A stretch of DNA of 64,000 nucleotides from Escherichia coli (GTDB lineage: Bacteria; Pseudomonadota; Gammaproteobacteria; Enterobacterales; Enterobacteriaceae). Location of the stretch: the NCBI RefSeq assembly GCF_003790525.1, contig NZ_CP033632.1; one strand, written 5' to 3'. The notes beneath the pieces were generated by a model. It was not told the origin of the DNA and ran no database searches. It saw only the letters and a program-made list of their open reading frames with translations. Positions 27,929 through 49,753 of this stretch are shown piece after piece; within the stretch, counting starts at the first letter, position 1, and every line of letters starts with the position of its first letter. The translations under genes were made by a program, and so were the position numbers.

Positions 27929-28400
27929 GGCTATCGCTGCTGCTGAGGCTGCAATTGACGACTATAGAGGCGATGCTTGCGATGGATGGAGCGAAGAGGT
28001 CGAAAGCATTTGCTGGGGGGTAATTATTCAGCAGGCAACCAAGGTCGGTGAACGCAAGAAGAGGAAATGCGACAGAGTATCACCATGGATTGAAAGAGTT
28101 TGTGATTATGAGCTTCGACCTAATGTCGAAATCCCAGCCACCGATGCTTTCCTGTCTGAAATTCGTGCGGAAGCACGCAACGAGGGGATTAACTATACCG
28201 CCAGCCGTCTTGCTGCTGCGTTCAATCACGGATTTATCAATAAGTCTTTGCGTGAAGTTTTCGACGTTACACGCATGATTTTGTCAGCGAAAGAAGAGTT
28301 GGCTAATGAAGCGCATCCGATTGATGGCCTGTCTGGTGAATATGCGGAGAAATCCCTTGAAGAATGGGCGGAACAAATTCGCAAAGGAAGCAGCCAGTGA
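27929..28400 (+). CDS. Hypothetical phage protein; 5' end probably removed by IS26
   Basis: Frame opens at the IS26 boundary; shares the PATDAFL-E-RA segment with the gene at 28684. Confidence 0.5.
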
Positions 28401-28687
28401 ATATCGACACGACAATAACGATCGATACGCTCCTAAATACCGGTCTGGCACTTCTCGGTTGGCTTTACATCATGTCCCGCACATGGCGATGGCTGGGTTC
28501 CATTTTCCTAAAACAGTGGAAAAAACGGCGCAAACAGGAACTACGCCAGAAGGCATTAGAAGCGTTCTATGACGCATTTGAGCTTAGCCGCATTGAACCA
28601 GGTACAACAGCCAGGATAGCGACAAAAGGCGACCTGATGATAGTGATGTTCCGACAGGAGAGAGCAGAGAAAGGGGAATCAGCATGA
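28397..28687 (+). CDS. Small membrane protein (GTG start)
   Basis: GTGA overlap with the upstream stop; one hydrophobic segment. Confidence 0.45.
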   Translation: MNIDTTITIDTLLNTGLALLGWLYIMSRTWRWLGSIFLKQWKKRRKQELRQKALEAFYDAFELSRIEPGTTARIATKGDLMIVMFRQERAEKGESA

Positions 28688-29418
28688 AATTTTCCAAATT
28701 TTCTGAGTTGGTGAATCGTATTTTGTCCAACAACCACAGCCATCGTCGCGATATGGATGTAACAATCGTTGTTCATTCGCCTGGCAGCATTGGTTCAACA
28801 CCTTCAGTTGAGGTTCAGTCAATTCACGCTGGTTTTGATTGGGATTCCGGGAAAGTGCTTATTTTCCCATCACAGCCACTGACCACGCTAACACCAGAAC
28901 AGATTACTGATATCACTGATAGTGTGCGCAAAGGTCAGTCTTGGCACGCATATCAGGAATACAAGAAGCATCAAGAGCAGTTGGAAAAATTGTCGATTGA
29001 ACTGGATGCCGCAAAACAGCGCATTGCAGAGCTGGAGGGTAATCGCACGGCGCTGGCAGTGGAGAATGAGCTGGCTCGTAAGGCAGTTCAGGCATTCTGC
29101 GATGTTGTTGGCGACAACACCGAGGTTATCGCTGAGGTGGTTGGGCGAGATGGCGTTCTGGTTATTTTGGAGGCCATGAAGGCAACAGGAAATATGCCAG
29201 CCACCGATGCTTTCCTGGCTGAAGTGCGGGCGCAGGGCGTGGATGCTGCTATAGAAGCTGCAAAAAATCTGGTGGCCCAAGAATATGAGTATAAGGATTT
29301 CAAAGCGGCGCAGAGTGATTGCTGTATGCACCCTGGTTCAGACCTGGTAGGGAAGGTTGAAATGACTGAGTGGTTAGTTGACTTTGCTGCCCAGCTTCGC
29401 AAAGGAGGCAACCAGTGA
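28684..29418 (+). CDS. Hypothetical phage protein, coiled-coil, 244 aa
   Basis: ATGA overlap; paralogous C-terminal region to 27929..28400. Confidence 0.55.
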   Translation: MKFSKFSELVNRILSNNHSHRRDMDVTIVVHSPGSIGSTPSVEVQSIHAGFDWDSGKVLIFPSQPLTTLTPEQITDITDSVRKGQSWHAYQEYKKHQEQLEKLSIELDAAKQRIAELEGNRTALAVENELARKAVQAFCDVVGDNTEVIAEVVGRDGVLVILEAMKATGNMPATDAFLAEVRAQGVDAAIEAAKNLVAQEYEYKDFKAAQSDCCMHPGSDLVGKVEMTEWLVDFAAQLRKGGNQ

Positions 29419-29933
29419 GCGAAATTAATTACCAGGCACTGCGTGAGGCGGCGGAACGTGCAATTCCAGCAATGGAACGCCTGTTAATGTTGCCAGCTGA
29501 TGATGATTTGTTAAGTGAACAGGAACTTAAAGATTACGGTGTGGATATTGATGCGCTCAACGCCTTCAAATTTCTGGCCGGACCAGAAACCGTGCTGGCA
29601 CTACTGGATGAACGGGAAAGGAACCAGCAATACATCAAACGCCGCGACCAGGAGAACGAGGATATTGCGCTAACGGTAGGGAAGCTGCGCGTTGAGCTTG
29701 AAGCAGCAAAATCAAAACTCAACGAGCAGCGTGAATATTACGAGGGAGTAATCGCGGATGGAAGTAAGCGCATAGCAGAACTGGAGGAGCGGGAAATACT
29801 GCTCCCGGAACGTAGCAGCATGCTTCATCGAACAGATTTTCACGATGATTACCAAACGGTAATGGCATACAAAGTTTCTGAAGTCATCGCTGCAATCCGC
29901 GCCGCAGGCATTCGCATCAAAGGAGGTGAGTAA
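29415..29933 (+). CDS. Hypothetical coiled-coil protein, 172 aa
   Basis: GTGA overlap with the upstream gene. Confidence 0.55.
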   Translation: MSEINYQALREAAERAIPAMERLLMLPADDDLLSEQELKDYGVDIDALNAFKFLAGPETVLALLDERERNQQYIKRRDQENEDIALTVGKLRVELEAAKSKLNEQREYYEGVIADGSKRIAELEEREILLPERSSMLHRTDFHDDYQTVMAYKVSEVIAAIRAAGIRIKGGE

Positions 29934-30109
29934 TGCGTGTGGCATGTATCGGCTTGTTACCGTACCCGACTCGTTTTTGGGCTTCTGCGCTAATTGCAAA
30001 GCCGTATGTCCTGATGGCTGACAACATCATCCCGGCACCAAAGCGCCGCCATACCGGTATTGCAGCGGCACGACGAGCAGCAAAGAGACGCAGGAGAGCA
30101 AAGCGATGA
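29933..30109 (+). CDS. Small basic protein, 58 aa (below the ORF-track threshold)
   Basis: Manual translation [58 protein letters not shown]; overlaps neighbours at both ends. Confidence 0.4.
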   Translation: MRVACIGLLPYPTRFWASALIAKPYVLMADNIIPAPKRRHTGIAAARRAAKRRRRAKR

Positions 30110-30282
30110 AAAACCGTAAGGCAAAACGACTTTTTTTACAGCGACCTGTGCGTGTGGTGGAGCTGGTTATTAGCAACCATAAGATAGCGGTACTCCATCC
30201 ATTTGGTCAGGTGGCTTTTGCCGCAAAGCGTAAGCCTACTGCGTCACAGAACAGGCGGAAGAAAGGGTACGCAGTAAGATGA
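30106..30282 (+). CDS. Small basic protein, 58 aa, starting MKNRKAK
   Basis: Manual translation; ATGA overlap with the next gene; paralog of 30279..30467. Confidence 0.4.
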   Translation: MKNRKAKRLFLQRPVRVVELVISNHKIAVLHPFGQVAFAAKRKPTASQNRRKKGYAVR

Positions 30283-47820: not shown

Positions 47821-47835
47821 GCCATGGCCTCCGGG

Positions 47836-48612
47836 TTAAATCGTAACTGATTCACCATCAGCAGGAGCGACAACTGACGCCTGGATCTGGTTATCGCGGG
47901 CATATTCCAGCAGTTCCTGACGGGTCAGCAGACAGTGGTTTACGGCCTCCATGTGCGTTGCCACAATCAGTGCCTCTGGTACGATACGATGGGCTTTCAG
48001 GACATCTTCCCTGCCGAAAATAATGGGGCCGAATCCGAGAACATGCGCCCAGCCCGTATTCATAATAACGACGCCAGGATTGAACCGACGTAAATTATCC
48101 TCTACAGCCTTGATCCAGATGGTATCCCCAACCAGATAGAGCGTTTTTTCGGACGGATGCTGGAAGACCACCCCACAGGCATCCCCAAGAATTGCTGCGA
48201 GTTGCGGGTTAGCATAGGCTTCGTCCGAACCATGCTGACAAACGGTTTTAATAAGTGAAATTTCGCCAAATGTGCTTTTGTCAGACAGAATAACAAGGTT
48301 GCTGAAGCCCTGGGAACGCAGGATCTTTTCATCATGTTCATTCTGAACATAAATCAGTTTATCTTTCGGGATGTGCGCAACAGCCGCTTCATCCCAGTGG
48401 TCAGGGTGTGTGTGGGTGACAATAATGGCATCCACATCCAGCAGTACATCAAGGTCAAAAGGCAGCTCAGTCATCGGGATGCGGATATCTGACCGGGCCG
48501 TTCCTTCGAATCCCGGATAGGCTTCTTTTTTCGCAAGCATCGGATCGACAAGAAATTTTTTACCAGCGTAAGAAATGAGTTGTGTGGCGTTACGTACCTG
48601 GATGATCTTCAT
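47836..48612 (-). CDS. Metallo-beta-lactamase-fold hydrolase, 258 aa
   Basis: HxHxDH motif (THTHPDHWD). Confidence 0.7.
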   Translation of the reverse strand: MKIIQVRNATQLISYAGKKFLVDPMLAKKEAYPGFEGTARSDIRIPMTELPFDLDVLLDVDAIIVTHTHPDHWDEAAVAHIPKDKLIYVQNEHDEKILRSQGFSNLVILSDKSTFGEISLIKTVCQHGSDEAYANPQLAAILGDACGVVFQHPSEKTLYLVGDTIWIKAVEDNLRRFNPGVVIMNTGWAHVLGFGPIIFGREDVLKAHRIVPEALIVATHMEAVNHCLLTRQELLEYARDNQIQASVVAPADGESVTI

Positions 48613-48827
48613 TTTAGCAAGTCCTGTATTGGTTAATAACCATCAGAGCCATATCATGATGGCCTAATGTGATAATTATGATTAAATCAGGCCTGCCTGC
48701 CACTGAAATAATGCCATATTTGGATGATATCAGGCCATTCTTCTGGCTCTCAGGTTTCAGGAATATGTCTGCTGAAAGCGGGTACAGATCTGACGCATTG
48801 AAGGGAAGTATCGTCCTTTAAGGCTTA

Positions 48828-49217
48828 TTGATGTCAGCCAGTACAAAAAATCATCTTAACGTACAATATCTTCCGTTTCCCAAACGGAGCCCACCAACGG
48901 CGGAGGAACGGCGCATCGCCAATGCTCTTGGCGCTCTCCCCTGCATTGCCTGCTATATGCATGGAGTAATATCTAATGAGGTGTCTCTGCACCATATCGC
49001 CGGTCGTACCGCGCCGGGTTGTCATAAAAAGCAATTGCCACTTTGTAGATGGCACCACCAGCATGCAGCTCCGGCTGAAGTAAGAGCAAAATACCCCTGG
49101 CTGGTCCCTGTTCATGCCGATGGTGTGGTTGGAGGCAAGAAAGAATTCACCCTGCTGAACAAGTCAGAGATGGAGTTACTGGCTGACGCCTATGAGATGG
49201 CAAACATCATGCACTAA
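48828..49217 (+). CDS. HNH endonuclease-like protein, 129 aa (P1 Ref-like)
   Basis: Cys/His HNH-like motifs (CIACYMHGV...SLHHI...LCRWHH); TTG start. Confidence 0.5.
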   Translation: MMSASTKNHLNVQYLPFPKRSPPTAEERRIANALGALPCIACYMHGVISNEVSLHHIAGRTAPGCHKKQLPLCRWHHQHAAPAEVRAKYPWLVPVHADGVVGGKKEFTLLNKSEMELLADAYEMANIMH

Positions 49218-49405
49218 TAAATATATTATTTTTAATGATAAATGATTGACAACTGACAAGTGACTTCAGTCAGAATCATCACATGCCCGGTACGGATGGA
49301 TCCCCTTTCAAATATTCCATGGACGGCACAGTCTGAGTACCGGGCGCTACCTTCAGTTGTATTGCTAAGCCGCCGCTGGTGGCTTTTCTTTTTTGTAGGG
49401 GCGCT

Positions 49406-49753
49406 ATGGATAAGAAAATATGCGTTGTTTCAATGAGCGTCGGCAAACCGGCGTCAATGACTGCTGCATGGATCAACAATGAGCTGATAATGGCTGAGCG
49501 GACCAGCTACCCTGAACGCCGCCGCGATATGGAACTCCAGCTGCTGCGCGAATTGCGAGAAAAAGAGGAAAAGGGTTTTATCGTGCTGGTGGAAGAGGAA
49601 AACAGCTTTATTACCGGTCGAGTTGGCCAGCGTGTAAGGTTGCGTGATCCCTTCATGAACGGCAGGCCGGTACTAATTGAAGCAATGCAGATTTACAAGG
49701 AGTTGGAACGCCAGAAAGCGATCAAGTTACCGCGCAAGGAATCCGGCAAATAG
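49406..49753 (+). CDS. Hypothetical protein; stop codon lies at the junction with the Tn1721-type IR
   Basis: Start taken at MDKKICVV inside ORF 49379..49753. Confidence 0.4.
   Translation: MDKKICVVSMSVGKPASMTAAWINNELIMAERTSYPERRRDMELQLLRELREKEEKGFIVLVEEENSFITGRVGQRVRLRDPFMNGRPVLIEAMQIYKELERQKAIKLPRKESGK

Follow-up and report, generated by a model that had tools for sequence, protein, structure and literature searches.

We analysed a stretch of 64,000 nt from Escherichia coli contig NZ_CP033632.1 (hereafter the window; the rest of the replicon lies outside the data), in which DNA of the phage P1 family stands between an IS26-bounded resistance mosaic and a Tn1721-type transposon end. All of this P1-family DNA forms one collinear block at 27929-49752 (21,824 bp). 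Among phage records the best megablast match to the block was Punavirus P1 (99.2% over ~15.7 kb), and the part at 35539-45518 shares ~97-99% identity with phage P1. When the P1 reference proteins (annotation of NC_005856.1) were searched against the window by tblastn, the P1 gene order was found to be retained for PmgT (C-terminal part only), PmgU, PmgV, UpfM, UpfN, UpfO, Lxr, HumD, Phd, Doc, PdcA, PdcB, Lpa, PacA, PacB, C1, Coi, ImcB, ImcA, Cra, Cre and C8. The core features of the block are as follows.

36743-36964, plus strand: phd, 100% to P1
36964-37344, plus strand: doc, 100% to P1, forming an addiction (toxin-antitoxin) operon with phd
38601-38617, plus strand: Olpa, a match to the C1 operator consensus
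38688-39140, plus strand: lpa, the late-promoter activator, 100% to P1
39226-40419, plus strand: pacA, a terminase (pacase) subunit, 99.5%, with substitutions A80S and V144A
39419-39577, plus strand: the pac site inside pacA, with 4 + 3 hexamers on either side of the cleavage region
40419-41903, plus strand: pacB, a terminase (pacase) subunit, 100%
41928-43292, minus strand: the immC region (c1, coi, imcB and imcA), located by tblastn
41928-42779, minus strand: c1, 283 aa, 99.6%
42890-43099, minus strand: coi, 100%
42874-42890, 43338-43354 and 43421-43437: the operators Oc1ab, Oc1d and Oc1e, respectively, as consensus matches
43481-43514, plus strand: loxP, an exact 34-mer for which 0 chance matches are expected
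43933-44964, plus strand: cre, 343/343 aa, 99.7%, with the single substitution A178S

The regulatory sites are preserved as closely as the genes. The C1 operator 17-mer consensus had six matches (with at most 3 mismatches) against 0.15 expected, and five of these six lie at the P1 positions of Olpa, Oc1ab, Oc1d, Oc1e and Oref. The pac site differs from that of P1 by 1 mismatch over 201 bp and consists of four TGATCA hexamers (at 39419, 39426, 39438 and 39453) followed by three TGATC(A/G) hexamers (at 39549, 39561 and 39572). The sole difference between C1 and the P1 reference is at residue 193, which is G in the window and C in the reference (the thermosensitive c1.100 allele); the C1 of the window is thus probably a wild-type repressor. 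An earlier note on this DNA had assigned the block to the P1 family on the basis of loxP, Cre, the C1 operators, c1-coi, pacAB with the pac site, and phd-doc, and each of these features was located where that note had placed it. The note had also remarked that the P1 replication and partition genes are not in the window, which is in agreement with a blastn comparison with the whole of the P1-like plasmid pQ502 (NZ_CP127257.1) and with two thirds of P1. In this comparison the block was collinear with pQ502, and no further P1 backbone was detected anywhere in the 64 kb, the sole extra match being an IS1 fragment at 646-871. Specifically, repA, parA and parB were absent from the window in the search with pQ502, and none of the lytic replicon, head, tail, lysis or immI genes of that plasmid were found in it.

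We conclude that the block is very probably a contiguous 21.8-kb arc of an E. coli P1-like (Punavirus) phage-plasmid, which runs from an accessory ead gene to mat, has been cut by two separate mobile-element events, and persists as stability and immunity baggage in a replicon that is either oversize or depleted of P1 genes. The event at the right edge can be read most clearly, and the features there are the following.

49406-49753, plus strand: mat, 3'-truncated to 115/213 codons, with the first G of the Tn1721 repeat as the last base of its TAG stop
49753-49790, plus strand: the 38-bp terminal inverted repeat of Tn1721 (outer right-end repeat, IRR-II), exact and the sole copy in the window
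49786-54942: the right-hand tet module of Tn1721, adjoining the outer repeat
49786-51606, minus strand: tnpA of the Tn3 family, truncated and equivalent to aa 384-954
52071-52955: pecM/EamA
52987-54261, minus strand: tet(A)
54265-54942: tetR
56003-62423: the mer operon (merR-merA) and tniA, beyond the tet module

The second end of this transposon lies outside the window, and the pair of 5-bp target-site duplications was seen only in a relative. In that relative (L014; GCA_958331845.1, CATUQR010000054.1, 6721-12360) a complete 5.64-kb Tn1722 occupies the identical base of mat and is flanked on both sides by AAATA (a 5-bp duplication), followed by the 3' part of mat. In P1 the insertion site reads uninterrupted as CCGGCAAATACATCC. 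The 115-aa truncated Mat product is present on 71 public contigs annotated as E. coli, the longest of which is a complete plasmid of 131,772 bp. In addition, a 75-kb contig (L010) is 99.995% identical to window positions 39406-59753, across the junction between mat and Tn1721, and another contig (L016) is 100% identical across the same junction. Because the duplication in the relative lies at the same base and the truncated Mat is found on 71 contigs, position 49752/49753 marks, on these alignments, an end of a Tn1721/Tn1722 element that genuinely transposed into mat and was inherited by a lineage of P1-like plasmids. The interior of the transposon in this lineage now consists of the tet(A) module joined to the mer/tni region. 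The Tn1722 of the relative may either keep the ancestral state or be a derivative without the tet module.

At the left edge, the first position with P1-family homology is 27929, which falls within an 867-nt ead/Ea22-like gene and lies directly beside an IS26 copy.

23792-27928: a unit of IS26, fosA3, three open reading frames (ORFs) and IS26, with both IS26 copies in direct orientation
27109-27928, minus strand: the boundary IS26, complete at 820 bp, with its 14-bp terminal repeats and tnp26 (ORF 27161-27883)
27929-28400, plus strand: the ead/Ea22-like gene, 5'-truncated, with the first 395/867 nt gone

A chimeric ORF of 158 aa starts at a GTG inside the end of IS26 and runs into ead, and its product is identical to WP_225877542.1 of E. 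coli. This protein is encoded on only three contigs, the longest of 147,451 bp, and the IS26 junction is therefore rarer than the junction between mat and Tn1721. Two contigs from independent assemblies (L017 and L018) match the window at 100% identity across the IS26-ead junction and up to 10.6 kb beyond it; both end inside IS26, as is usual for short-read contigs. The 8 bp beside the boundary IS26, GGCTATCG, which a duplication partner should repeat, flank none of the window's five further IS26 copies. The junction may have arisen by insertion of IS26 with later accretion of translocatable units, or by IS26-mediated cointegration or deletion involving another resistance plasmid. The fosA3 unit has the form of a translocatable unit, and its right-hand IS26 is the copy that adjoins the P1 block.

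These observations also bear on the possibility that the adjacency of P1 and resistance DNA is an assembly chimera produced by collapsed repeats. Misjoins are conceivable in the left 28 kb, where six identical IS26 copies are present. The IS26-ead junction, however, is found at 100% identity in two independent assemblies, and the mat-Tn1721 junction recurs in dozens of assemblies with unique sequence on both sides, so that a chimera is hardly credible. Both edges given in the earlier note (IS26 at 27928/27929 and a Tn1721-type inverted repeat at 49752/49753) proved exact to the base, as did the nature of the two boundary elements, and its claim that the resistance island is physically fused to a P1-type backbone is borne out by the same junctions in independent public assemblies. 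Neither junction was found contiguously in the phage collection, in PLSDB or in the complete E. coli RefSeq genomes, and exact 38-40-nt junction patterns had 0 matches in IMG/VR.

Could the element travel as a phage? The genome of P1 measures 94.8 kb, and its head holds ~112% of a genome, or roughly 105 kb (PMC10999674). The foreign DNA in the window amounts to 27,928 and 14,248 bp at the two ends (42.2 kb, both ends running off the window) plus 3,367 bp of non-phage cargo inside the block, which adds up to at least 45.5 kb. If the backbone were complete, the molecule would thus measure at least ~137 kb, beyond a headful of ~105 kb with terminal redundancy. The 147,451-bp contig that encodes the left-junction product agrees with this estimate, and large insertions are known to block phage transfer (Pfeifer et al., PMC9600943). 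We lean slightly towards an oversize replicon with a largely complete P1 backbone; a replicon without most P1 genes, in which the block is a remnant inside another replicon, has an appreciable but smaller chance of being correct. Because the molecule either exceeds a headful or, if it is small enough, must miss most P1 genes, spread by infection and lysogenic conversion is unlikely: the element is too big or too incomplete either way. The earlier note had held that intactness cannot be judged from the window. This stands as far as repA and parAB are concerned, which are absent from it, but the comparison of at least 45.5 kb of foreign DNA with a ~105-kb headful makes the question partly judgeable. 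Likewise, the fusion that the note considered relevant to phage-mediated spread of resistance is real, but the configuration had already been published and its size makes lysogenic conversion unlikely.

A fully functional, inducible P1-like phage-plasmid that spreads its resistance islands by infection and lysogenic conversion would account for the intact state of the packaging, immunity, Cre-lox and late-activator genes, and induction and transfer of P1-like phage-plasmids carrying resistance genes have been described (PMC9600943). We nevertheless regard this as very improbable, given that the foreign DNA in the window far exceeds the ~11 kb of spare head capacity (PMC10999674), that both mat and ref are truncated, and that the sole long contig on record with the left junction measures 147 kb.

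Far more weight has to be given to the opposite case, a dead remnant, in which most of the P1 backbone was deleted and IS26 cointegration and deletion left 22 kb in the resistance region of another replicon, such as a conjugative plasmid of the IncF33 type or another. The truncated ead without an 8-bp duplication partner within 28 kb, the relaxase/helicase fragment cut by IS26 in the left island, the published fusions of IncF33/IncF53 with phage-like plasmids (PMC9748602, PMC10654068) and the presence of a P1-like segment in a 231-kb plasmid (match H82) all speak for this possibility. On the other hand, the genes of the block are all intact and almost identical to those of free P1-like plasmids, the 147-kb contig fits the window plus ~77 kb of remaining backbone equally well, and relatives that have a full backbone show the right junction as a simple insertion. 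A remnant of this kind is a substantial possibility, albeit one that falls short of being our preferred account.

What the retained genes would do for the replicon follows from their near-identity to P1. The phd-doc operon would kill cells that lose the replicon (post-segregational killing), Cre and loxP would resolve multimers, and C1 with its operators would keep lpa, and hence pacAB, silent while repressing homoimmune P1-type phages that enter the cell. The block more probably serves as plasmid-type baggage, conferring stability and P1 immunity, than as a phage. Several points weigh against the view of the block as such baggage in an oversize or P1-depleted replicon. The 64-kb window is the only part of the molecule that was read, and repA/parAB, repL and the structural genes may sit elsewhere on it. 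The order of segments in the IS26-rich left island rests on assembly through six identical repeats of 820 bp, and the maintenance and immunity roles ascribed to phd-doc, Cre-lox and C1 are transferred from their near-identical P1 counterparts.

The intact state of the pac site, pacAB, lpa and Olpa raises a further possibility, namely that the block works as a helper-dependent packaging cassette. A P1-type helper would lift C1 repression and thereby allow Lpa to activate pacAB, after which pac would be cut and headful packaging would proceed through loxP into the tet(A)-mer island, resulting in high-frequency transduction. P1 packages DNA from pac towards lox, since lox falls within the terminally redundant part of the first headful. 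Downstream of pac, in the direction of lox, the tet(A)-mer island starts after ~10 kb, and a helper-activated cut at 39.5 kb would package loxP and cre, and next the tet(A)-mer island. According to work cited in PMC10999674 (Huang and Masters 2014; Westwater 2002), P1 packages and transduces other DNA far more efficiently once a pac site has been inserted into it, and P1 phagemids rely on the same principle. However, the resident C1 should repress an incoming homoimmune phage, and a helper in this host is not known. Packaging by a helper along these lines seems unlikely. A little less likely again is that the P1 block owes its retention to a role as a natural phagemid-like cassette, allowing pac-driven, high-frequency transduction of the resistance island even though the replicon itself would be too large or too defective for a phage.

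Fusions of this kind are already well documented. The resistance genes of P1-like phage-plasmids sit in a few hot spots (PMC9600943), Tn1721 units are known in P1-like plasmids of Salmonella (PMC9430114), and IS26-mediated fusion of P1-like pO111/IncY plasmids with IncF plasmids has been published (PMC9748602, PMC10654068). Compared with phage P1 itself (NC_005856.1), the window shares the gene order from pmgT through pacAB-c1-lox-cre-c8 to ref-mat, with loxP, the pac hexamers, the C1 operators and phd-doc identical or nearly so, but it holds only ~23% of the P1 genome, lacks hot, has truncated ref and mat genes, and contains two regions (27929-33354 and 45519-48885) without a P1 counterpart. 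These two regions are near-identical to those of P1-like plasmids, namely plasmids carrying a cargo of GlxA, metallo-beta-lactamase (MBL) and ester-cyclase genes between c8 and ref (NC_017653.1 and NZ_CP142679.1) and, for the ead module, pQ502. Those plasmids measure 90-126 kb and have ead and mat intact at these positions, and neither junction of the window is present in any of them.

Transposons of the Tn1721 family have entered this part of the P1-like backbone more than once. Salmonella SJ46 and p14146, in which Tn1721 carries blaCTX-M-27, likewise have such a transposon near ref-mat of a P1-like backbone (PMC9430114). Their insertion site is a different one, since mat is intact in SJ46 and the duplication in p14146 is TATGAA, and theirs is a single packageable genome of ~103 kb. 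Tn1721 or TnAs1 was also found in ref or mat of the P1-like plasmids pJSMCR1_2 (at mat nt ~228), pUTME-12-1 (in the ref region) and NZ_CP110512.1 (~220 bp further into mat), whose junctions are independent of that in the window. The ref-mat region is, by this comparison of insertion sites, a recurrent target of Tn1721-family transposons. For the left edge, the closest parallels are pHNSHP24 and pD72C, hybrids of P1-like pO111/IncY and conjugative plasmids in which IS26 likewise joins P1-like DNA to resistance or conjugative DNA (PMC9748602, PMC10654068). Both copies of IS26 have been documented in pHNSHP24, as has the 8-bp duplication, whereas the window shows one side only and no partner duplication. 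The block of the window is an instance of this known kind of hybrid, made up of near-identical copies of known elements with both junctions already in public assemblies, and as a phage it is most likely defective.

The window is a further example of a molecule that unites P1-type phage-plasmid DNA with multi-resistance transposon DNA (fosA3, blaCTX-M, oqxAB, aph(3')-IIa, tet(A) and mer). An element of this type is not a transmissible phage simply because it has pac, cre and c1, and the amount of inserted DNA argues against lysogenic conversion. The recurrent Tn1721-family insertions in ref-mat, together with this exact mat junction on 71 contigs, offer lineage markers for tracking P1-like resistance plasmids.

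The remaining features of the block are listed below.

28364-33354, plus strand: an accessory early-gene module with a DUF4752 gene, a 244-aa ORF, an ead/Ea22-like gene (29415-29933), a DUF551 gene (30981-31838) and small ORFs
33354-34710, plus strand: the C-terminal part of pmgT/pmgU, pmgV (33727-34089) and homologues of upfM, upfN and upfO, located by tblastn
35165-35521, minus strand: a 118-aa ORF beside lxr, placed in the same way in pQ502
35522-36106, minus strand: lxr, located by tblastn
36281-36670, plus strand: humD, encoding a UmuD'-like S24 peptidase, 97.7%
37328-38599, plus strand: pdcA and pdcB (DUF968/HNH), located by tblastn
43704-43925, plus strand: cra, located by tblastn
45015-45326, plus strand: c8, located by tblastn
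45519-48885, minus strand: non-phage cargo of 3,367 bp, which takes the place of the 5' end of ref
~45675-45842: within the cargo, a resolvase remnant
46421-46804: within the cargo, a SnoaL-like/ester cyclase gene
46831-47820: within the cargo, a GlxA/FtrA-type regulator (DJ-1 and AraC)
47836-48612: within the cargo, an MBL-fold hydrolase gene
48828-49217, plus strand: ref, 5'-truncated, with aa 61-186 of P1 Ref kept

The cargo region (45300-49752) is present in 66 complete E. coli records at 99.5-99.8% identity. Because so many records carry a near-identical copy, the cargo is, as far as its distribution indicates, an old backbone variant that is standard in one sub-lineage of P1-like plasmids, and not a recent acquisition. 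No terminal repeats of transposon type were found around it. A defence system was considered for the ORFs of the cargo and the accessory module, but PADLOC gave no meaningful matches and the cargo proved to be a common backbone variant. tRNA and Rfam scans of the block gave no matches. P1 hot, which encodes a homologue of the theta subunit, is absent from 34710-35539, as it is from pQ502, and the 118-aa ORF is found there instead. A frameshift in mat was also considered, as a G-run is 1 nt shorter than in P1, but it was rejected because the 213-aa Mat annotated in P1-like plasmids starts only past the indel, at the ATG at 49406. The P1 reference annotates a Mat of 250 aa from an upstream start (compare window positions 49296-49406 with P1 positions 2716-2826), and the shorter G-run lies between these two starts.

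The left 28 kb of the window are an IS26 mosaic of the usual kind. Besides the fosA3 unit it comprises blaCTX-M accompanied by an IS903-like element and a piece of iroN, oqxAB together with its Rrf2 regulator, aph(3')-IIa with part of IS50, an IS91-family element, and the fragment of a relaxase/helicase gene. The latter lies at 17381-19710, where a C-terminal relaxase/helicase fragment (567 aa) and a DUF6710 gene have been cut by IS26, at 17378; from its gene content, this fragment is a remnant of the transfer region of another plasmid within the resistance mosaic. Positions 1-645 are without a long ORF, and the IS1 fragment at 646-871 ends where the first IS26 (872-1691) has cut it. A lone terminal repeat of IS26 at 6209-6222, whose partner end 820 bp away is absent, marks a truncated IS26 that adjoins the IS91-family element (6519-7718).

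The accessory part of the block, finally, has a history of its own. Region 27929-33354 is without a P1 counterpart and matches P1-like plasmids, not P1 itself, with 99.4-99.6% identity to pQ502 over 27929-33075. Genes of the ead/DUF551 module, including an identical DUF551 protein and the adjoining small ORFs, were also found in chromosomal lambdoid prophages (L021, L023, L025, L026 and L028), which points to a probable exchange of this module between phage-plasmids and integrated prophages.

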